64,000 nt of DNA from Seleniivibrio woodruffii. GTDB taxonomy: Bacteria; Chrysiogenota; Deferribacteres; Deferribacterales; Geovibrionaceae. The position numbers and the translations under genes are program-made. How positions within the stretch are numbered: the stretch's first letter is position 1; each line of letters starts with the position of its first letter. This document shows positions 23,186-57,275 of this stretch, piece by piece. The notes under the pieces are model-generated. The model was given only the letters and a program-made list of their open reading frames with translations, did not search any database and was not told the origin of the DNA. The stretch spans positions 87,106 through 151,105 of the forward strand of contig NZ_SMGG01000003.1 of assembly GCF_004339245.1 (NCBI RefSeq), read 5' to 3'.

Positions 23186-23876
23186 CCAGTTTCTTAAGAG
23201 CTTTTGCGGCGGCCGCCTTCTCTGCGCTCTTTTTTGTTTTGCCCGTGCCCTCTTCCGTAACCAGACCCTCAACATGCACACGGACAAGGAAAATCTTGTC
23301 GTGTTCGGGGCCGGATTCGTCAAGCACTATGTATTCCGGCAGTGAGCCGAACTGACGCTGGGTTATCTTCTGAAGTTCGCTTTTGGAATCGATGAAGGTG
23401 CTGTTTGAAATGTCCTCATCTATCTTTGAACCGAAATGGGCAATGATGATCTTTCGTGCCGCATCATAGCCGCCGTCCAGATATATCGCCGCCACGACCG
23501 ATTCGAAGATATCGCAGAGCAGAGACTCCTTATACTTCCCGCCTGAGGCCTTTTCTCCTTTGCCCAGAAGTATATGCTCGCCCAGCTCCATCTCCGTCGC
23601 AATTTTGCTGAGGAAACATTCGCTGACAAAAAATCCACGAAGTTTTGAGAGAAGCCCCTCGTCATAGTCTTTGTATCTTTCCAGAAGATACTCCGTCACT
23701 ATGAGCTGAAGCACCGCATCGCCCAAAAATTCGAGACGTTCATAATTTTTGTTGTTCTTCTTCTCATGGGCGTAAGATCTGTGGGTCAGAGCCTCCAACA
23801 CCACAGACCTGTCGCCAAAGCTGTAACCTAGTTTAGCTTCGAGAGTTTCGATATCCGAACTCTGCTTTTTATTCAT
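23172..23876 (-). CDS. rnc: Ribonuclease III
   Basis: [19 protein letters not shown] signature and a C-terminal dsRBD. Confidence 0.92.
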
Positions 23877-30642: not shown

Positions 30643-31410
30643 TTATTCCGTTATCCTCACAGGGACGTTTCGCTCGGCAAGGAATCTTTTTACCTCGCCA
30701 ACGGTATATTCCCTGAAGTGAAAGATGCTGGCCGCAAGAGCCGCATCCGCTTTGCCCTCTGTCAGTCCATCGTATATGTGCTGAGGGTTGCCCACTCCGC
30801 CGCTGGCTATCACAGGTATCCCTACAGTTTCAGAAACCGCACGGTTAAGCCCGTTGTCGTAGCCGTCCTTTGTGCCGTCGCAGTCCATGCTGGTGAGAAG
30901 TATCTCTCCCGCTCCGAACTCCTGCATCTTAGCCGCCCACTCCAGAACATCTATCCCCGTTGCGTTGCGTCCGCCGTGTGTATAGACCTCCCAGCCAGTG
31001 CCGCCGACCCTTCTCTTGGCATCAATGGCAACCACGATGCACTGAGAGCCGAAACGCAGAGCCGCTTCCTTTACAAACTCAGGTCTGTGCACAGCCGCCG
31101 TGTTGATGGACACCTTGTCCGCACCTGAGTTCAGAAGGTTTCTGATGTCCTTTATCTCACGAACGCCGCCGCCCACGGTCACAGGCATGAACACCCTTTC
31201 GGCTGTTCTGGCCACAACGTCAAGAATTATCCCTCTGTTGTCCGAGCTGGCTGTTATATCCAGAAACGTAAGTTCGTCAGCCCCCTGTGCGTCGTAGATC
31301 TCCGCAACCTCGACCGGATCGCCTGCGTCCCTTAAATTTACAAAGTTAGTACCCTTAACAACCCTGCCGTCCTTAACGTCCAGACAGGGGATAATGCGTT
31401 TTGCGAGCAT
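30643..31410 (-). CDS. hisF: Imidazole glycerol phosphate synthase cyclase subunit
   Basis: Begins [20 protein letters not shown]. 255-aa TIM barrel. Confidence 0.92.
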
Positions 31411-31589: not shown

Positions 31590-32411
31590 ATGGCAGATTT
31601 CCAGAAAAAGATCAATTCGGGAGCGCTGGGCGGTGTTGCCGCTGTTGCCGTGGTCGCAATAGGCTTCCTCGCTTTCACGGCTTTCACGACGATCACCGCA
31701 GGCTCAAGAGGTGTTCTTCTCACCTTCGGCAAACCCTCTGACAGGGTTCTCGGCGAAGGTATCCACTTCAAGATACCGCTTGTGCAGTCCATCGTAAAGA
31801 TCGACACCAAGATAAAAAAAGGTGAAATAGACACCGGAGCAGCCTCAAAAGATCTTCAGGATGTAACGGCCACCGTAGCGGTGAACTTCCATCCGGATCC
31901 CGAGCGGGTCAATATCCTTTACAAAACCATCGGACTTGACTATGCCTCAAGGGTTATAGACCCTTCCGTTCGGGAGGTTATGAAAGCTGTCATCGCACGC
32001 TACACCGCAGGGGAGCTTATCACCCAGCGTGAGGATGTTAAAAACAACATCAAAACTCAGCTGCAGGCACGCATGGTAACATTCAATGTTATCCTTGATG
32101 ATTTCTCAATAGTCAATTTCAGCTTTTCGAAGGGATTCACAGATGCCATCGAAGCCAAGCAGACCGCTGAACAGCTTGCTATAAAGGCTCAGAGAGACCT
32201 TGAGCGTATCAAGATAGAGGCGGAGCAGAAGATAACTCAGGCACAGGCCGAGGCCGAGTCGCTGAGACTTCAGAAGACCAACGTTACCCCTGAGCTTATC
32301 AAGCTGAGAGAGATAGAGATGCAGACCAAGGCCATTGAAAAATGGAACGGACAGCTGCCCACCTACACAGGCGGAGCGATGCCCTTTCTGAACCTGTCGG
32401 CACCTAAGTAA
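31590..32411 (+). CDS. SPFH/band 7 (prohibitin-like) membrane protein
   Basis: N-terminal TM segment, an SPFH domain, and a C-terminal coiled coil (EAEQKITQAQAEAESLRLQ). Confidence 0.8.
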   Translation: MADFQKKINSGALGGVAAVAVVAIGFLAFTAFTTITAGSRGVLLTFGKPSDRVLGEGIHFKIPLVQSIVKIDTKIKKGEIDTGAASKDLQDVTATVAVNFHPDPERVNILYKTIGLDYASRVIDPSVREVMKAVIARYTAGELITQREDVKNNIKTQLQARMVTFNVILDDFSIVNFSFSKGFTDAIEAKQTAEQLAIKAQRDLERIKIEAEQKITQAQAEAESLRLQKTNVTPELIKLREIEMQTKAIEKWNGQLPTYTGGAMPFLNLSAPK

Positions 32412-32420
32412 AACACCCAG

Positions 32421-32454
32421 CCGCCGATGGTTTCGCTGTCGGCGGTTTTTTATT
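32421..32454 (+). terminator. Rho-independent terminator after the band 7 gene
   Basis: CCGCCGA-N11-TCGGCGG stem followed by a TTTTTTATT run. Confidence 0.75.
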
Positions 32455-32487
32455 CCGTCACTCTGAGGCTCCAGCCGAAAAGTCTCT
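32455..32487. repeat. Dispersed intergenic repeat, copy R3 (long subtype CCGTCACTCTGAGGCT...AGTCTC)
   Basis: Nearly identical to the left arm of the palindrome at 47768..47799. Confidence 0.7.
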
Positions 32488-32495
32488 TTTAAGTC

Positions 32496-32618
32496 TTATT
32501 TATCCGTCTTCTTGGGTTTGCAGAGTTTTTCTTTCTTATTCGACTGCGCACCGCATTTGGAACATTCGAAATCCTTCTCTTTGTCCTTTTTCGGTTTCTC
32601 ACCGCACTTTTTGCTCAT
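32496..32618 (-). CDS. 40-aa Lys-rich, 4-Cys small protein translationally coupled to ppk1
   Basis: Its ATG overlaps the ppk1 TGA stop (ATGA). Sequence MSKKCGEKPKKDKEKDFECSKCGAQSNKKEKLCKPKKTDK, with Cys at positions 5, 19, 22 and 33. Confidence 0.5.
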   Translation of the reverse strand: MSKKCGEKPKKDKEKDFECSKCGAQSNKKEKLCKPKKTDK

Positions 32619-34642
32619 AGCTTCGCCTTTCGGGTGTACAGCTTCTGGCAGTTGTCTATCATAAAATCCTGATAGTTCAGCCTGTCTTTGGCCGCTTTTG
32701 TTTTGACGTATTCTGTTCCTTTCTGGAACCACGTCTTCTGATTGTCGCTCAGGTTGAGGTCGAGTATGTTCAGAAGGAAATTCCGTCCCTCCTTCTTTGT
32801 CACCTCGAAGAACATCTCAACACGCCTGTCCATGTTGCGCTCCATCCAGTCGGCGGTGCTGAAAAACACACGTTTTTTGCCCCCCGCATGGAAATAGATT
32901 ATTCTGGGATGCTCAAGGAACCTGCCCACGATACTGCGCACACGGATGTTTTCAGTAACGCCCTTTATTCCGGCACGGATGCCACAGATGCCCCGTACGA
33001 TAAGCTCAATCTTAACTCCCGCACAGGAGGCCTCTATCAGTTTGTCTATTATCTTGCGGTCTATCACCGCATTTACCTTAACTATCATCTTAGCCTCTTT
33101 GCCCGCTTTGGCAAAGGCTATCTCCTCGTCTATCAGTTCCAGAACCTTAGGCTTGATGTATTTCGGCGCAAGATAAAATCTGTTCCAGTTGCCGATATCA
33201 GTATAGCCCATCAGGAGGTTAAACATTGCGGCACTGTCCTTGCCGACGTCCTCATCAGCAGTGATATAGTCCACGTCGGTGTAGATTCCGGCGGTGAACT
33301 CGTTAAAGTTGCCTGTGGACATATGGGAATAGCGAACCACTCTGCCCTTTTCCCTGCGCACTATCATAAGGTTCTTAGCATGTATCTTAAGCCCCGCTAT
33401 GCCGTAGGTGACGATGCATCCCGCCTCTTCAAGCATATACGCCCAGTCGACGTTGCGTGCCTCGTCAAAACGTGCCTTAAGCTCCACCACAACGCTGACG
33501 TGCTTGCCGTTTCGTGCGGCATTCATAAGGCTTTCGAGAATTGTCGAGTTTTTGTTAGCCCTGTAGAGGGTCATTTTTATGGCCATGACATCCGGATCAT
33601 CCGCCGCCGCCGCAACCATTCTGGACACTATGCCGAAATCATGGAACGGACGGTACATTATAATGTCCCGTTTTTTTATCTGCTCAAATATATCCGTCGT
33701 GCTGTCAACATCCTCCGGCAAAACCGGTTTGAAAGGCGGATAACAGAGGTCGGGACGCTCCCCTACGATGGAGAACAGTGAGGTCATGTCTATTATATCG
33801 TCAATTACATATACGACGTCTTTTGAAAACTGGAGATGTTCCGCCACTTCGCCCAGAATCTCCTGCGGGAGCCTGCTGTCGGTCTCCACACGGCATATCC
33901 ACCCCTTTTTGCGGGATTTCAGATAGTTCTGGATTGAAAGAAGAAGATCCACCGACTCCTCTTCGTCGAGGGTAAGGTCGGCATTGCGTGTCACCCGCAG
34001 AAGATAGCTGTCCAGAACCTCGTAGTCCGGATAGACTATATGCAGATATTTCGCAAGGATGTCTTCGGTGAACAGGAAATAGGTCTTGTCCAGCTTAACC
34101 CTGAACATTCTGCGCAGACTCTCCGGCAGAATTATCGTGGAATGATGAATCTCGCCGTCTTTTTTTATGAGAACATAAAGACACAGGCGCAGGTTGTGGA
34201 TGAACGGCATAGGGTTGTTTGCCGAAAGGGTAACGGGTGATATCACCGGATATATCTCCTCGTTGAAGATAGCTTCGGTTATATCATCCAGATTGTTCGT
34301 CAGATTGGGAGCAATGACTATCCCCTCGCTTTCCAGTTCCTTTTTCAGCCCGGCGAAAATCTGCTGACGAAGACTGGTCAGCTCATGAGCCTTTCTGCTT
34401 ATCAGCTCCAGCTGTTCAACGGGAGTTTTTCCGGAGACATCCAGCTTGTCGTAGCCCGCCTCTATCTGGTCACGCAGACCGCCCACACGGATCATGAAAA
34501 ACTCGTCCAGATTGGATGAGAAGATGGCAAGGAATTTAAGGCGCTCCAGAAGCGGAACGGATTCGTCCATCGCCTCCATCATAACCCTTCTGTTAAACTC
34601 CAGCCAGCTGAGTTCCCTGTTAATATACGGACTGACAGCCAT
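32615..34642 (-). CDS. ppk: Polyphosphate kinase 1
   Basis: 675 aa with the PPK1 N-terminus (LSWLEFNRRVMMEA) and two PLD-like domains. Confidence 0.92.
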   Translation of the reverse strand: MAVSPYINRELSWLEFNRRVMMEAMDESVPLLERLKFLAIFSSNLDEFFMIRVGGLRDQIEAGYDKLDVSGKTPVEQLELISRKAHELTSLRQQIFAGLKKELESEGIVIAPNLTNNLDDITEAIFNEEIYPVISPVTLSANNPMPFIHNLRLCLYVLIKKDGEIHHSTIILPESLRRMFRVKLDKTYFLFTEDILAKYLHIVYPDYEVLDSYLLRVTRNADLTLDEEESVDLLLSIQNYLKSRKKGWICRVETDSRLPQEILGEVAEHLQFSKDVVYVIDDIIDMTSLFSIVGERPDLCYPPFKPVLPEDVDSTTDIFEQIKKRDIIMYRPFHDFGIVSRMVAAAADDPDVMAIKMTLYRANKNSTILESLMNAARNGKHVSVVVELKARFDEARNVDWAYMLEEAGCIVTYGIAGLKIHAKNLMIVRREKGRVVRYSHMSTGNFNEFTAGIYTDVDYITADEDVGKDSAAMFNLLMGYTDIGNWNRFYLAPKYIKPKVLELIDEEIAFAKAGKEAKMIVKVNAVIDRKIIDKLIEASCAGVKIELIVRGICGIRAGIKGVTENIRVRSIVGRFLEHPRIIYFHAGGKKRVFFSTADWMERNMDRRVEMFFEVTKKEGRNFLLNILDLNLSDNQKTWFQKGTEYVKTKAAKDRLNYQDFMIDNCQKLYTRKAKL

Positions 34643-34724: not shown

Positions 34725-34750
34725 GACTCTTCGCTCCGCTCAGAGTGACG
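34725..34750. repeat. Dispersed intergenic repeat, copy R4 (short subtype GACTCTTCGCTCCGCTCAGAGTGACG)
   Basis: Lies in the ppx-ppk1 spacer and matches the right arm of the 47810..47836 copy. Confidence 0.7.
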
Positions 34751-34757
34751 CAGAATA

Positions 34758-36275
34758 TTATTCGTAGAGTATCCTTGTCTCAAGTTCTATGGGAATACCG
34801 AAAGTATCCGTGAAAATTCTGCTCTTTTCGCCGAATGCATGCTTCTCAAGGAATGCCAGACTCTTGCATTTGGCTTTGATGACAACCTTTCCCGTCTGGA
34901 TGTCCACATCGAAATCCTGAATCAGGTTCATGTGGGAAGCATCCAGAGAATCGGCAATCCTCAGCATGCTTACCAGTTTCTTTATCAGAAGCTGCTTCTC
35001 TATGGAAAAATAGTGATATTTCTGCTCGAACCACTTCTCAACATCGCCGTTGTGCATCAGAACCAGATATGAAACCAGTTTCACACGCTCCCTGGGAAGC
35101 CCGGGGATCTCCAGAGACTGCACCAGATAGTAAGAGTGCTTATTATGCTTCACCGCATCGATATAATAACCGATATCCGACAGCATCGCCGCCGCCTCAA
35201 GGAGAAACTTCTCCTGTCTGCCCAGCGAGTGCAGAGGCTTAAGCTCATCAAACAGCTTCATTGCAAAGCGGGTTGTGGTCTCCGCATGCCGCTGATCCAT
35301 GTTGAACCTTTCGCCCAGAGCATATATCGTGTTCCGGACACGGTTGAAAAAACCTCTGTCTCGAACGGTATTGGTATGATAAAGGCTCAGCATGTGCGGG
35401 AAAGTCATCCCTGAAAACCGCACATAGTCCGTTCCGACAAAGTCCATAAGCTTGAGATAGGTCACCAGTGTGGGAACCAGAAGCCCTGCCTCATCCTTTC
35501 GTATCTTCATCACCGACTGAATCGTGTCTCTGGGCAGCTGTTTAACCCTGTCGTAAAGCTCTTCCAGCTGTTTTCTGGTGAGCATGTTCTTTTTGGGTTT
35601 GAAAATGTTCAGAAGAACGTTCAGCGATGAGCCGGCACTGACAAAATATTTCAGCTTGCATCCGGCGGGCAGTCCGCTCTTCATGGAGTAACACATCTTC
35701 TCGACGTACTGCTCATAAGCCTTGTATCTTATTCGGGCAGGGATGTCGCCGAAGATTCGGCGAAGCCTAAGCGCACCGTAGGGCAGTGCGCCGGAATACA
35801 TGTTCTGCTCGTCTTTCAGAATAGCCATTGCGATGTTTCCGCTGGAGATGTTTGCCAGCAGAACGCCCGCCTTCTCATAGTCGTCAAAATCCTCTATATC
35901 ATTCTTAACACTTACAAATTTAATATATATCTCATCTGCCGGCTGAATAACCTCAAGCTCAATGCCCGTCTCCTGCTTCACATGGTTAATGAAAAAGGCT
36001 CGGTTGCCCGCCTCACGCACGCCGCTGGTGCACACGGCAACGTAGTTCTTCTTTATGCCGTATTCATCCATTTTGATGCGGAATTTTTTCAGGATATCAG
36101 TGGCCGCATAAACACTCTCAAGGGAGATGTATCCTTTGGTGAAGGTGTCTCTGCCCAGCCTGAATGGTTTTATGAGATATTCCAGAGTGCGCTCCTCTCC
36201 GTTCACATACTCGCTGATGTGCATGCGGAATGCGCTCGCCCCGATGTTTATCGCCGCAAAAATACCGTTCTTCAT
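34758..36275 (-). CDS. ppx: Ppx/GppA-family exopolyphosphatase with C-terminal HD-like domain
   Basis: ASKHA-fold N-terminus (AAINIGASAFRMHISE) and 505 aa length. Confidence 0.85.
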   Translation of the reverse strand: MKNGIFAAINIGASAFRMHISEYVNGEERTLEYLIKPFRLGRDTFTKGYISLESVYAATDILKKFRIKMDEYGIKKNYVAVCTSGVREAGNRAFFINHVKQETGIELEVIQPADEIYIKFVSVKNDIEDFDDYEKAGVLLANISSGNIAMAILKDEQNMYSGALPYGALRLRRIFGDIPARIRYKAYEQYVEKMCYSMKSGLPAGCKLKYFVSAGSSLNVLLNIFKPKKNMLTRKQLEELYDRVKQLPRDTIQSVMKIRKDEAGLLVPTLVTYLKLMDFVGTDYVRFSGMTFPHMLSLYHTNTVRDRGFFNRVRNTIYALGERFNMDQRHAETTTRFAMKLFDELKPLHSLGRQEKFLLEAAAMLSDIGYYIDAVKHNKHSYYLVQSLEIPGLPRERVKLVSYLVLMHNGDVEKWFEQKYHYFSIEKQLLIKKLVSMLRIADSLDASHMNLIQDFDVDIQTGKVVIKAKCKSLAFLEKHAFGEKSRIFTDTFGIPIELETRILYE

Positions 36276-37801
36276 ACCAGCCTTACAGGGAGTTTCAAAA
36301 GCTTAGCCAGCATATCCCTGTTTCTCTCAAAATCTTTTATTTCAAACGTAATGTCCTTGTCGGACACTGGTCTGATATCTATGGCAACTGGGGTGACGTT
36401 AACGTCAAGCCTGTCTATAAGCCCTTTGTGGGTTCTGTCCAGAGCTATCGCAAGCCTGAGCAGAGCCGTCAGTTTCTCAACCCTCAGCTGAAGCGAAAGG
36501 CAAAGATCGTTGAAATCGCCGTGCGCCGCTTTGGGCATGCTCTTTCTGTGATATCTGGCTATGCTGGCAATGGCCTCCACCTCGTCGTGTGTATAGCCCA
36601 CCAGCTCCGAATGCTTTATCATATAATAAGAGTGCTTATGATGTTTGGAATAAGCAATGTGTTTGCCGATATCCCTCAGCATCGCCGCCGCCTCAAGAAG
36701 ATACCAGTCCTTCTCAATAAGCCCCATGCGGTCTTTAAGCCCGTCAAAGAGCATTCTGGCCAGTTTCGCCACCTGAACGGCGTCCCTCTCGTCAAAGTCG
36801 AATTTGTTGCCCACCTCAATCAGCCTCGCATAGCGCACGTTGTCCATGCTGTTCTGCTGAAAAGGAAGCTCTATACCCATCCTGTTTATGGTGTCGATGG
36901 TGATTCCCGCCCGAAGTCCACCTGTCAGAGTGTAGAAACCGTCTATTCCCGTCTCTTCCAGAACCATGTCGGTCTGGATGGCCGCCGCAAGGATTATGTC
37001 CGCCCGTTTCTCCTCCATCCCCTCTATCTTCACCCGCTCCGCAGTGGTTTTTCCTCTGATGTCGCTGATGAATTTTTTCAGGAATTTCCGCTCAACGTAT
37101 TTCACCTGACTGTCACGCAGGTTCTTATCCCTGTAGTGACAGATCACTCCGGCGTTGTTCATGGAACCGCCTGTGCAGATGAGCATCTCAAGCCCTTTGC
37201 CCGGCTTCAGTTTATCAATATAGTCCTTAATGTGAGCCTTCATGGCAATTATCTGCGCCGACGTGGGCGGGTCGCCTTCCAGAAACTCACGGGTGAGCCT
37301 GTTGCAGCCCAGAGGCAGGCTTTTCGCCTTGTCCACCTCGCCGTCACGGACTATGGTATATTCCGCACTTCCGCCGCCTATATCGGTTATGAGAGCGTTG
37401 CGCCCTTTAAGTTCAAAATTTGCGCTGGCGGCCAGATAGGTGAGCCTCGCCTCCTCCTGTCCGCTTATGACCTCAATCTTTATCCCGCATTCCTGCTCAA
37501 CAATGTTAAGCGTCTCCCCGAGGTTGTCCGCCTCTCTGAAGGCCGCAGTGGCAATAGCTCTTATGGTTTTGCATCCCCTGCTCTCTGCAAGCCGCTTAAC
37601 ATTTTTGAGCGTGGAAACTATTGTTTCGATGGTATCTTTGGAGAAGTACCCCTGAGTGTATATCGCATCGCCGAGGCGTATCATCTCCTTATAGTCTTCA
37701 AGGACACGGTAGCTTTTGTCCTTCACCTCGGAAATCTGAAGACGTAAGGAGTTGCTGCCTATATCGGCAACAGCCACTTTGACGTTATCGCTTGATCGCA
37801 T
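36272..37801 (-). CDS. Second Ppx/GppA-family phosphatase (tandem paralogue)
   Basis: VAVADIGSNSLRLQISE motif, 509 aa. Its stop overlaps the downstream ppx start by 4 nt (ATGA). Confidence 0.85.
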   Translation of the reverse strand: MRSSDNVKVAVADIGSNSLRLQISEVKDKSYRVLEDYKEMIRLGDAIYTQGYFSKDTIETIVSTLKNVKRLAESRGCKTIRAIATAAFREADNLGETLNIVEQECGIKIEVISGQEEARLTYLAASANFELKGRNALITDIGGGSAEYTIVRDGEVDKAKSLPLGCNRLTREFLEGDPPTSAQIIAMKAHIKDYIDKLKPGKGLEMLICTGGSMNNAGVICHYRDKNLRDSQVKYVERKFLKKFISDIRGKTTAERVKIEGMEEKRADIILAAAIQTDMVLEETGIDGFYTLTGGLRAGITIDTINRMGIELPFQQNSMDNVRYARLIEVGNKFDFDERDAVQVAKLARMLFDGLKDRMGLIEKDWYLLEAAAMLRDIGKHIAYSKHHKHSYYMIKHSELVGYTHDEVEAIASIARYHRKSMPKAAHGDFNDLCLSLQLRVEKLTALLRLAIALDRTHKGLIDRLDVNVTPVAIDIRPVSDKDITFEIKDFERNRDMLAKLLKLPVRLV

Positions 37802-47767: not shown

Positions 47768-47836
47768 CCGTCACTCTGAGGCTTATACCGAAGAGTCTCT
47801 GTCTTACATGAGACTCTTCACTCCGTTCAGAGTGAC
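47768..47836. repeat. Palindromic pair of the dispersed repeat (long copy plus inverted short copy)
   Basis: CCGTCACTCTGAGGCTTATACCGAAGAGTCTC ... GAGACTCTTCACTCCGTTCAGAGTGAC, between the convergent paaK and TRIC genes. Confidence 0.7.
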
Positions 47837-55805: not shown

Positions 55806-57275
55806 ATGCTGGAAAGTTTCGAAAAGGCCGAAAAGATATCAAAAAGCGACTACACTGACGAGCTGAACCGACTGCGAACCGAACTTATAAACGCTCAATA
55901 CGAGTTCAAAAAATATAAACGCCCCATGATCCTTATCCTGACTGGTCTGGACGGTGCAGGGAAGGGGGATCTGGTGAATTTCATGGCCGACATAATGGAT
56001 ACCAGACTCCTTGAGACATCGACCTTCTGGCAGGAGACCGACGAGGAGAAGGAACGCCCCTATTATTACCGATTCTGGAACGCTATGCCCCAGGGCGGCA
56101 AACTGAGCATATATTTCAACGGATGGTACGACAAGACCATCCGCAGGGCTCTGGAGGACGGCGACAGTCCTGATGCTTTCACAAAAGGGCTTGAAGAGGC
56201 CGCCGATCTGGAAAAGATGCTTTCGCTGGACGGAACGGTAATAGTCAAGGTATGGGCGCACATCAGCAAAAAGGAACAGAAGAAACGCCACGAAAAACTG
56301 GTTAAAAAATCCGATAAATCCGAAGAGATAAGCAAACGTGCCCTCTGGTATTTCAGCAAATACGACAGGATAGTCGAATGTGCCGAAGCCGCATACAAGG
56401 CCACCCACAATGAGTTTGCCCCATGGGAGGTAATCGACTGCACGGACAGACGAACCCGTGAGATAAGGTTTCTTCAGGTCATCCTGAACCATATGAACCG
56501 TGCGCTGAAAGGACAGATGCCGAAAAGCCGCACGGAAAACCTTACAGGGCTTGCGTTTCCCAACGTTCTGGGCAGCCTGAAACAAAACTCTGAAACCGAT
56601 CCGAAGGTCTACCGCAATGAGCTTGACGGACTGGTTGAAGATCTTAAGCCGCTGGCATGGGAGGCTTTCCGCAAGGGTCTGAGCACCATGATAGTTTTTG
56701 AAGGATGGGACGCAGCAGGCAAAGGCGGGGCAATACGAAGACTTTTGCGGGCTTTCGATATGCGCCTTTCAAAAGTGACATCCATCGCCGCACCCTCTTC
56801 CGAAGAACTCTCACGCCACTACCTCTGGCGTTTCTGGCGGCAGGTTCCGCGTGCGGGCAGAATAGCCATATTCGACCGTTCATGGTACGGCAGGGTGCTG
56901 GTTGAACGTCTGGAGAAGATAACTCCCCCCGCCGACTGGTTCAGAGGGTATTCAGAGATAAACAGTTTTGAAAAGCATCTCTCCGACAAAGGCGTTCATC
57001 TGGTGAAATTCTTCCTGCATATAACCGATGAGGAACAGCTTGCACGCTTCAAGGAACGTCAGGAGATACCCTGGAAACAGCATAAGATAACCGATGAGGA
57101 CTGGCGCAACAGAGAGAAGAACGGGGAATATCTGGACGCTTACAACGAAATGTTCTTCAAGACCAGCACAAAGCATGCGCCATGGACGATAGTGCCCGCC
57201 AACGACAAGCGGGGAGCGAGAATTGAGATACTGAAACAACTTAAGACCAGTTTCACAAAGATGCTGAACAAATAG
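55806..57275 (+). CDS. ppk2: Two-domain polyphosphate kinase 2 family enzyme (polyP:AMP/ADP phosphotransferase-like)
   Basis: Two PPK2 P-loop kinase domains (GLDGAGKGD and GWDAAGKGG Walker A). GGAGG Shine-Dalgarno before ATG 55806. Confidence 0.85.
   Translation: MLESFEKAEKISKSDYTDELNRLRTELINAQYEFKKYKRPMILILTGLDGAGKGDLVNFMADIMDTRLLETSTFWQETDEEKERPYYYRFWNAMPQGGKLSIYFNGWYDKTIRRALEDGDSPDAFTKGLEEAADLEKMLSLDGTVIVKVWAHISKKEQKKRHEKLVKKSDKSEEISKRALWYFSKYDRIVECAEAAYKATHNEFAPWEVIDCTDRRTREIRFLQVILNHMNRALKGQMPKSRTENLTGLAFPNVLGSLKQNSETDPKVYRNELDGLVEDLKPLAWEAFRKGLSTMIVFEGWDAAGKGGAIRRLLRAFDMRLSKVTSIAAPSSEELSRHYLWRFWRQVPRAGRIAIFDRSWYGRVLVERLEKITPPADWFRGYSEINSFEKHLSDKGVHLVKFFLHITDEEQLARFKERQEIPWKQHKITDEDWRNREKNGEYLDAYNEMFFKTSTKHAPWTIVPANDKRGARIEILKQLKTSFTKMLNK

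Follow-up and report, generated by a model that had tools for sequence, protein, structure and literature searches.

The question posed by this locus is whether a 40-codon open reading frame (ORF) that begins on the stop codon of ppk1, the gene for polyphosphate kinase 1 (PPK1), is a gene in its own right, and whether its product works alongside the enzyme encoded just upstream. The locus lies in a stretch of 64,000 nucleotides (nt) of Seleniivibrio woodruffii (contig NZ_SMGG01000003.1, positions 87,106 to 151,105), which as a whole is called the window; all coordinates below are positions within it. Comparison with related genomes leaves very little doubt that the ORF is a genuine, conserved protein-coding gene under purifying selection, and it is the last cistron of a ppx-ppx-ppk1 cluster. 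The function of the mini-protein that it encodes can be addressed only more tentatively. The favoured explanation is that of a metal-stabilised, lysine-rich accessory protein, made with PPK1, that binds polyanions and may serve as a partner of polyphosphate (polyP) or of PPK1 itself; it falls a little short of an even chance. The central features are as follows.

32615..34642, minus strand: ppk1, polyphosphate kinase 1, 675 aa (PP_kinase N, middle, C1 and C2 Pfam domains; TIGR03705 763 bits, cutoff 466).

32624..32630, minus strand: Shine-Dalgarno (SD)-like AAAGGCG within the final codons of ppk1, 7 nt 5' of the peptide ATG (read from sequence).

32615..32618, minus strand: ATGA stop/start overlap, made of the ppk1 TGA (32617..32615) and the peptide ATG (32618..32616).

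32496..32618, minus strand: gene for the 40-aa, Lys-rich mini-protein with four cysteines (Cys4), of the family called 'KLCKP' below (purifying selection, orthologues, family, annotation WP_277656257.1).

The 3' end of ppk1 reads ...AAG CTA TGA, and the peptide ORF closes on a TAA at 32498..32496. The coding status of the ORF is settled by its comparative conservation and not by the length of the open frame, because 40 open codons alone have P ~0.13 from base composition. A search with the ppk1 protein produced 80 loci from species-representative genomes, the closest being those of Seleniivibrio and other Deferribacterales metagenome-assembled genomes (MAGs). The ORF is found directly after ppk1 in all nine of the Deferribacterales loci with a ppk1 of at least 67% identity, and beside ppk1 in none of the remaining 71, which include ppx-ppx-ppk1 clusters at 47-51% identity. 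When codons are compared between the window and one orthologue (L016), there are 18 synonymous differences and a single non-synonymous one; a second pair of loci (L011 and L014) differs at 8 synonymous and 0 non-synonymous positions. The ratio of non-synonymous to synonymous substitution rates (dN/dS) is 0.00-0.2 in most computable pairs and reaches 0.40 in one pair, with synonymous sites saturated. In DNA alignments the similarity is codon-periodic within the ORF and is entirely lost immediately past the stop codon. In the Denitrovibrio-like loci, moreover, the amino-acid motif is kept at 64% identity despite a rewritten nucleotide sequence, and the ORF there has its own SD.

The product, MSKKCGEKPKKDKEKDFECSKCGAQSNKKEKLCKPKKTDK, is specified by 40 codons and has a mass of 4.6 kDa. 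Its cysteines occupy positions 5, 19, 22 and 33 (C-X13-CxxC-X10-C), and it contains 15 lysines, no arginine and 7 acidic residues, with an isoelectric point (pI) of 9.5. An earlier note on this DNA had correctly placed the ppk1 TGA over the ATG of a 40-codon ORF and had given the same cysteine spacing. It counted 14 lysines, one too few, and supposed that so short an ORF would be missed by annotation, when the exact peptide is already listed by RefSeq/NCBI as a hypothetical protein of Seleniivibrio woodruffii (WP_277656257.1, TCK61624.1). The note had also reasoned that the lack of a conserved ORF after ppk1 in relatives, or conservation at the nucleotide level only, would point to a terminator or untranslated region (UTR); neither is seen, given the nine loci out of nine, the low dN/dS and the end of similarity at the stop codon. 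Its suggestion of a small metal-binding peptide gains support from the four invariant cysteines, which a metal site would require. Two other views of the ORF were discarded. A 78-aa version extended to an upstream GTG (32496..32732) was rejected because orthologues separated from ppk1 by a spacer begin at the equivalent of the ATG, and a reading as the precursor of a ribosomally synthesized and post-translationally modified peptide was dropped because a modification enzyme occurs in none of the neighbourhoods seen.

Searches with the single sequence recover close relatives only, and a profile of the Deferribacterales orthologues recovers 44 proteins. An exhaustive HMMER search with a 42-sequence alignment extends the KLCKP family to 552 representative clusters (50% identity) with E ≤1e-3. 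Single-module members are 36 to ~60 aa long and carry an N-terminal Cys (M..KC or MGCL/MCLKG), then [FY]xCxxCG, 8-10 residues, and KLCKP[KVE]K. The window peptide shares every hallmark of the family: length, N-terminal Cys, [FY]xCxxC(G), [LIV]C[KR]P[KVE]K and a large excess of Lys over Arg. In the 42-sequence alignment, C19, C22, C33 and P35 are invariant, and C5, K28, L32, K34 and K37 are conserved in at least 90% of sequences. Figures that separate single-module from multi-module members are drawn from the top 150 profile hits, among which there are 64 single-module representatives, and the extra upstream Cys is present in 64/64 of these. Family composition is 26-33% Lys and 3-4.5% Arg. Loci of 62-69% GC still encode peptides with 11-18 Lys and 0-1 Arg, and the persistence of the bias at such GC contents argues for selection for lysine specifically.

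The same profile also retrieves, with E-values down to 1e-12, a set of multi-module relatives (P0045-P0053, P0064, P0073 and ~80 others) that are 75-110 aa long and consist of two to three tandem [FY]xCxxCG-x8-9-[LIV]CxP modules. These differ from the peptide in having three cysteines per module, often with a His two residues before the last Cys, and no extra N-terminal Cys; nor are they lysine-rich (9% Lys, versus 26% in the single-module family). Some are part of larger proteins: P0064 is fused to Hsp20, P0073 to a rubredoxin-like plus desulfoferrodoxin unit, and others carry Lys/Ala-rich, H1-like tails. No (Rosetta-stone) fusion to a polyphosphate kinase or nucleotidyltransferase occurs among the top 150 profile hits. 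Relatives were also absent from a viral-contig scan and a plasmid tblastn search, and a metagenome scan found only 12 loci, a number that does not allow enrichment to be tested formally. Nothing relevant came up when the literature was searched for the strings KLCKP or LCKPKK. The gene itself being already annotated, the new element is that a family has been recognized, together with its signature, its lysine-specific bias and its repeated coupling to enzymes that handle phosphoanhydrides (see below).

Known domain models do not account for the family. Pfam and NCBIfam scans of the window peptide, 10 single-module and 10 multi-module relatives gave only sub-threshold zinc-knuckle matches, and ten further long relatives contain no Pfam domains. 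The best Pfam matches, to zinc-ribbon and rubredoxin-type models, score 11-16 bits against cutoffs of 25-30. The nearest model, NF045720 (RCKP-type rubredoxin-like), gives 14.8 bits for the window peptide and 21.2 for the best family member or relative, against a cutoff of 45. A classical zinc ribbon or rubredoxin has two CxxC knuckles; the peptide has one (C19, C22), with C5 and C33 isolated. It nonetheless resembles the small zinc-finger mini-proteins and zinc-ribbon or rubredoxin-like knuckles (HVO_2753-type, NF045720): it is under 50 aa, its four Cys are conserved, its CxxCG knuckle sits on a beta-hairpin and it has a C-K-P motif, and it gives weak matches to the corresponding hidden Markov models (HMMs). 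The family alignment gave an AlphaFold2 (AF2) model of moderate confidence (predicted local distance difference test score, pLDDT, 75.6). In its small core, at residues 17-37, a beta-hairpin encloses the CxxC and is followed by a helix of a single turn and a last strand that runs through LCKP. A structural search with this model found no significant neighbour. Sequence-profile matches in the PDB to C2H2 arrays such as PRDM9 are additive and weak, and were set aside as motif mimicry of [FY]xCxxCG...L. The four cysteines are kept across the family, the pattern that a four-ligand metal site requires, and they probably bind a metal.

The commonest setting outside the Deferribacterales is a co-oriented trio in which the peptide gene lies between one for an AmgK-like kinase fused to a RapZ C-terminal domain (~480 aa) and one for a MurU-like nucleoside triphosphate (NTP)-transferase (~240 aa). 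The trio is found in at least eight lineages (L088, L091/L105, L100, L101, L102, L104, L111 and L118), whose AmgK-like kinases are 38-54% identical to that of L091; a ninth lineage has only the peptide and, after it, the transferase. The stop codon of the peptide overlaps the start of the MurU-like gene by 4 bp in three of the nine lineages, and the gap is at most 12 nt in three more. Neither ppk nor ppx was seen near the trio, and no description of its middle gene was found; the arrangement appears to be undescribed. The hosts are Bacteroidales and other metagenomic lineages, with the peptide at ~5001 or 4001 in most loci.

Other settings are more varied. In Planctomycetota MAGs the peptide gene is followed, after 45 nt, by one for a two-domain polyphosphate:AMP phosphotransferase (PAP; TIGR03708 675 bits, cutoff 548), an enzyme of the PPK2 type. 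One family member is 43 nt upstream of two dTMP-kinase-like genes, two lineages have the peptide upstream of mrpA (Mrp antiporter), and there are several unrelated settings besides (RidA/ZnuA, DUF4337, FtsX-like). It is suggestive, though not conclusive, that the family came to lie beside a polyP kinase on two occasions, the phyla being different and the enzymes, PPK1 and PPK2, non-homologous. The rough chance of a second polyP-enzyme adjacency is ~2% (a few per cent), given ~15 sampled context types and ~0.1-0.2% per lineage. That family members are repeatedly coupled so tightly to genes for PPK1, PAP/PPK2, nucleotide kinases and a nucleotidyltransferase suggests a connection with enzymes that form or cleave phosphoanhydride bonds.

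Within the Deferribacterales, two modes of expression can be read from the DNA. The ATGA overlap is kept in L001-L010 and L016, and is replaced by GTGA in L011 and L014 (ppk1 76-77% identity). The overlapping orthologues also keep AAGG(C/A)G 7-9 nt upstream of the start, although the C-terminal residues of PPK1 differ. In the window the two genes lie on the same strand with no terminator between them, no minus-strand promoter-like site was found in 32200..32900, and the ppk1-peptide pair has the stop/start overlap and the SD inside the upstream gene that characterize translational coupling. The kept overlap and SD are consistent with re-initiation coupling, which is plausible in the Seleniivibrio group and in L011/L014. 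The Denitrovibrio-like loci L012, L013 and L015 (ppk1 67-71% identity) have the peptide gene 70-73 nt 3' of ppk1 instead, behind a near-consensus sigma-70 promoter (TTGACA-16/17-TATATT or TATTAT, 11/12 matches) that begins within a few bases of the ppk1 stop in all three (L012 5992-6019, L013 5989-6017, L015 5992-6019). These orthologues have their own GAGG-type SD, and L012 also has its own terminator. The proposal of the earlier note that the peptide is translationally coupled to ppk1 thus stands as plausible for the Seleniivibrio lineage, with its conserved ATGA/GTGA and SD, but it does not generalize: the Denitrovibrio-like genes are spaced from ppk1, distant ppk1 loci lack the peptide, and across the wider family other neighbours are the commonest. 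The picture that emerges is of an ancestral small stand-alone gene between ppk1 and hisF, which would have been fused later into the ppk1 translation unit in the Seleniivibrio lineage. What follows the peptide gene varies: hisF lies there in L001 and L011-L015, L006 has an ABC-transporter gene and L008-L010 have other content. Through every downstream rearrangement seen, the peptide gene stays with ppk1.

The surroundings of the ppk1-peptide pair in the window are as follows.

36272..37801, minus strand: first Ppx/GppA-family gene, 509 aa (Pfam Ppx-GppA 179 bits, plus domain III).

34758..36275, minus strand: second Ppx/GppA-family gene, 505 aa (Pfam Ppx-GppA plus domain III; synteny).

32455..32486, minus strand: unit of a short dispersed repeat resembling repetitive extragenic palindromic (REP) elements, with an internal hairpin, directly 3' of the peptide stop (core repeats and copy alignment).

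32419..32447: GC-rich hairpin common to the convergent SPFH gene and the ppk1-peptide transcript (plus-strand terminator score, 13 pairs plus T-run).

31590..32411, plus strand: SPFH/Band-7 gene, convergent with the peptide gene.

The ppx-ppx-ppk1-peptide cluster opens with the 509-aa gene, whose end runs 4 bp into the second ppx gene. The two Ppx/GppA paralogues 5' of ppk1 (34758-37801, minus strand) are tandem and divergent, with ~25% mutual identity. The ppx-ppx-ppk1 order is found in all of the Deferribacterales loci and in distant ones down to 47% ppk1 identity, including Candidatus Acididesulfobacter MAGs (L017-L021, L026); the mini-protein is absent from these distant clusters, those MAGs included. 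On the minus-strand side the hairpin at 32419..32447 is followed by a weaker CTGGGTGTTTT. The SPFH/Band-7 gene occupies the site where L001 and L011-L015 have hisF, and hisF of the window lies at 30643-31410; this gene looks like an insertion between the peptide and hisF in the window lineage. No Rfam family matches anywhere in 32200..32900.

The repeat beside the gene is a separate matter. Its core, CGTCACTCTGAG, has three exact copies in the window, versus 0.26 expected, and one more copy with a single mismatch; the copies are at 32455-32486 (minus strand), 34739-34750 (minus), 47769-47780 (plus) and 23694-23705 (plus). The unit is ~35 nt long and intergenic; one copy separates the peptide stop from the terminator, and the spacer between ppx and ppk1 has another. 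Just past the peptide stop, L006, L008, L009, L010 and L016 have the same flanks (GAGACT...CAGAGACG) around different GC hairpins. The preservation of these flanks around differing hairpins suggests a REP-like structured element that would be maintained by compensatory change.

How might the mini-protein act? In the favoured explanation, the N-terminal Cys, the CxxC knuckle and the LCKP Cys would most likely hold one metal ion, with Zn2+ as the default expectation, and the metal would fix a tiny core of beta-hairpin and short helix ringed by Lys-rich segments of K/D/E/S type. Given the AUGA and the internal SD, ribosomes that finish PPK1 could re-initiate on the peptide AUG, and such re-initiation would tie synthesis of the peptide to that of PPK1. 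The peptide would then bind the polyP made by PPK1, or PPK1 itself, and so be a functional analogue of the CHAD phosin PptA (see below). In short, we infer metal binding, translational coupling in vivo and polyP binding for the mini-protein. The proposed polyP binding draws circumstantial support from the one independent adjacency to a PAP-type PPK2 and from the preference for Lys over Arg. That the relevant ligand or partner is polyP or PPK1 is, if anything, slightly less assured than the broader idea of a polyanion-binding accessory protein made with PPK1. Across the family, the role is probably that of binding phosphoanhydride-rich ligands or the enzymes that handle them.

Several observations weigh against a special tie to polyP. 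The dominant context outside the Deferribacterales is the AmgK-like/MurU-like pair, and adjacency to ppk1 is limited to the one clade with ppk1 identity of at least 67%, being absent at 51% or below. In the 'MGCL/MCLKG' clade, PPK2 accounts for one of the four sampled contexts, the others being dTMP-kinase-like, RidA/ZnuA and DUF4337. S. woodruffii has a PAP-type PPK2 of its own in the window (55806..57275, plus strand; 489 aa, two-domain, 37% identical over its full length to the PAP protein of L093), and no KLCKP-type peptide lies alongside it. The Denitrovibrio-like orthologues are independent transcription units. The composition threshold for PASK motifs (see below) is reached only marginally by the window peptide, and most orthologues fall below it (11-14/20). 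Finally, a small basic zinc protein could bind nucleic acid equally well.

This last point leads to the main rival, that the peptide is a generic small basic zinc protein, associated with nucleic acid, the nucleoid or the ribosome, and that its position next to ppk1 is a historical accident fixed in Seleniivibrio by the 4-bp overlap. Such a protein would be at home in the many contexts of the family (Mrp antiporter, RidA/ZnuA, DUF4337, FtsX-like and others); the strong promoter and terminator of the Denitrovibrio-like loci resemble those of a stand-alone, highly expressed gene; in profile and in fold the peptide weakly resembles zinc knuckles of the C2H2 and ribosomal types; and Lys-rich tails also bind DNA and RNA. 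However, an accident does not readily explain two independent polyP-enzyme adjacencies among ~15 context types, when the second has the ~2% chance estimated above. The repeated stop/start overlaps with nucleotide-phosphate enzymes point instead to stoichiometric co-production, and ribosomal or nucleoid protein families were unmatched in the Pfam/NCBIfam scans. The rival is thus taken seriously but regarded as unlikely.

A more improbable possibility is that the peptide is a metal or redox mini-protein, acting as a rubredoxin-like Fe(Cys)4 carrier, a thiol switch or a Zn/Cu buffer, and linked to polyP by way of metal or oxidative stress. The four invariant cysteines would suit this role, as would the multi-module relatives fused to Hsp20 (P0064) and to rubredoxin-like and desulfoferrodoxin domains (P0073), the sub-threshold matches to a rubredoxin-like NCBIfam model and the desulforedoxin N-terminal domain, and the one family member that is convergent with znuA. 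Yet there is a single CxxC knuckle and no rubredoxin-typical aromatic core, and the HMM scores are 15-21 bits against a cutoff of 45. In addition, the lysine content is extreme in the single-module family alone (26% versus 9%), which redox chemistry leaves unexplained.

The idea that there is no gene here, and that a fortuitous ORF lies in a 3' UTR, terminator or RNA element of ppk1, could draw on the unexceptional length of the frame (P ~0.13) and on the REP-like hairpin and terminator just downstream, but it is excluded for practical purposes because codon-periodic similarity ends at the stop codon and dN/dS is low, with 18 synonymous substitutions to 1 non-synonymous, a motif held at 64% identity over rewritten DNA in Denitrovibrio-like loci having their own SD, 552 related clusters and no Rfam match.

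Apart from the kinases, the CHAD phosins, AlgP and a small number of E. coli proteins, few bacterial proteins are known to bind polyP. A 40-mer that can be made chemically would be a tractable candidate for studying lysine-rich recognition of polyP and accessory action on PPK1, and it belongs to a mini-protein family that is co-encoded with PPK1 in one phylum and with PAP-type PPK2 in another. The analysis in any case defines a widespread family, with at least 552 clusters at 50% identity, for which there is no Pfam or NCBIfam model; should the polyP link fail, the peptide becomes an ordinary hypothetical small zinc protein. A bolder proposal, which we regard as doubtful, is that KLCKP is a new class of metal-stabilised, lysine-specific 'mini-phosin', made in fixed ratio with PPK1, PAP-type PPK2 or MurU-like nucleotidyltransferases, that would bind polyP, pyrophosphate (PPi), NTP or the enzymes themselves and would prime, cap, regulate or localise polyP synthesis.

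Among known systems, AlgP and the PASK-type segments offer a likeness of composition. AlgP, which is Lys-rich, localises to polyP granules (PMC9239181). Lys-rich and PASK-like segments lose their binding to polyP when K is mutated to R, and motifs of the PASK type are reportedly rare among bacteria (PMC12345225). Like AlgP with its KPAA repeats, and like the PASK and PASK-like segments of YihI and Rnr, the peptide is very high in Lys and low in Arg. These segments are predicted to be disordered, whereas the lysines of the peptide flank and decorate a predicted fold stabilised by its four cysteines. The long tandem KPAA-type repeat of AlgP and histone H1-like proteins is not present in the 40 residues, and the similarity is one of composition alone. 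By definition, a PASK motif needs 20 consecutive residues of which at least 75% are D, E, S or K and at least one is Lys (PMC12345225). The window peptide reaches exactly 15/20 in a single such stretch (residues 2-21), which is marginal; the Deferribacterales orthologues have 11-15/20, and 15 is attained by 4 of 44 family members. The PPK2 encoded at 55806..57275 also contains a 20-residue stretch at the PASK threshold, SKKEQKKRHEKLVKKSDKSE.

The closest parallel in gene arrangement is with PptA of Streptomyces. In that genus, pptA starts before ppk has ended and is transcribed together with it, and a promoter of its own serves pptA as well (PMC8003754); the PptA protein binds both polyP and metal ions (PMC6771595). 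Here too a positively charged accessory protein is encoded immediately 3' of ppk, with a start codon that overlaps the ppk 3' end, so that by its position in the sequence the peptide gene, directly downstream of and overlapping ppk1, is placed as a phosin gene is. The parallel runs two ways, since the overlap is seen in Seleniivibrio and the separate promoter in its Denitrovibrio-like relatives. It does not extend to the proteins themselves. PptA is a helical CHAD protein of ~300-450 aa, and no CHAD domain is matched by the peptide in Pfam at E ≤1. Binding to polyP has been demonstrated for PptA, and it would have to be achieved in the peptide by 40 residues built around cysteines.

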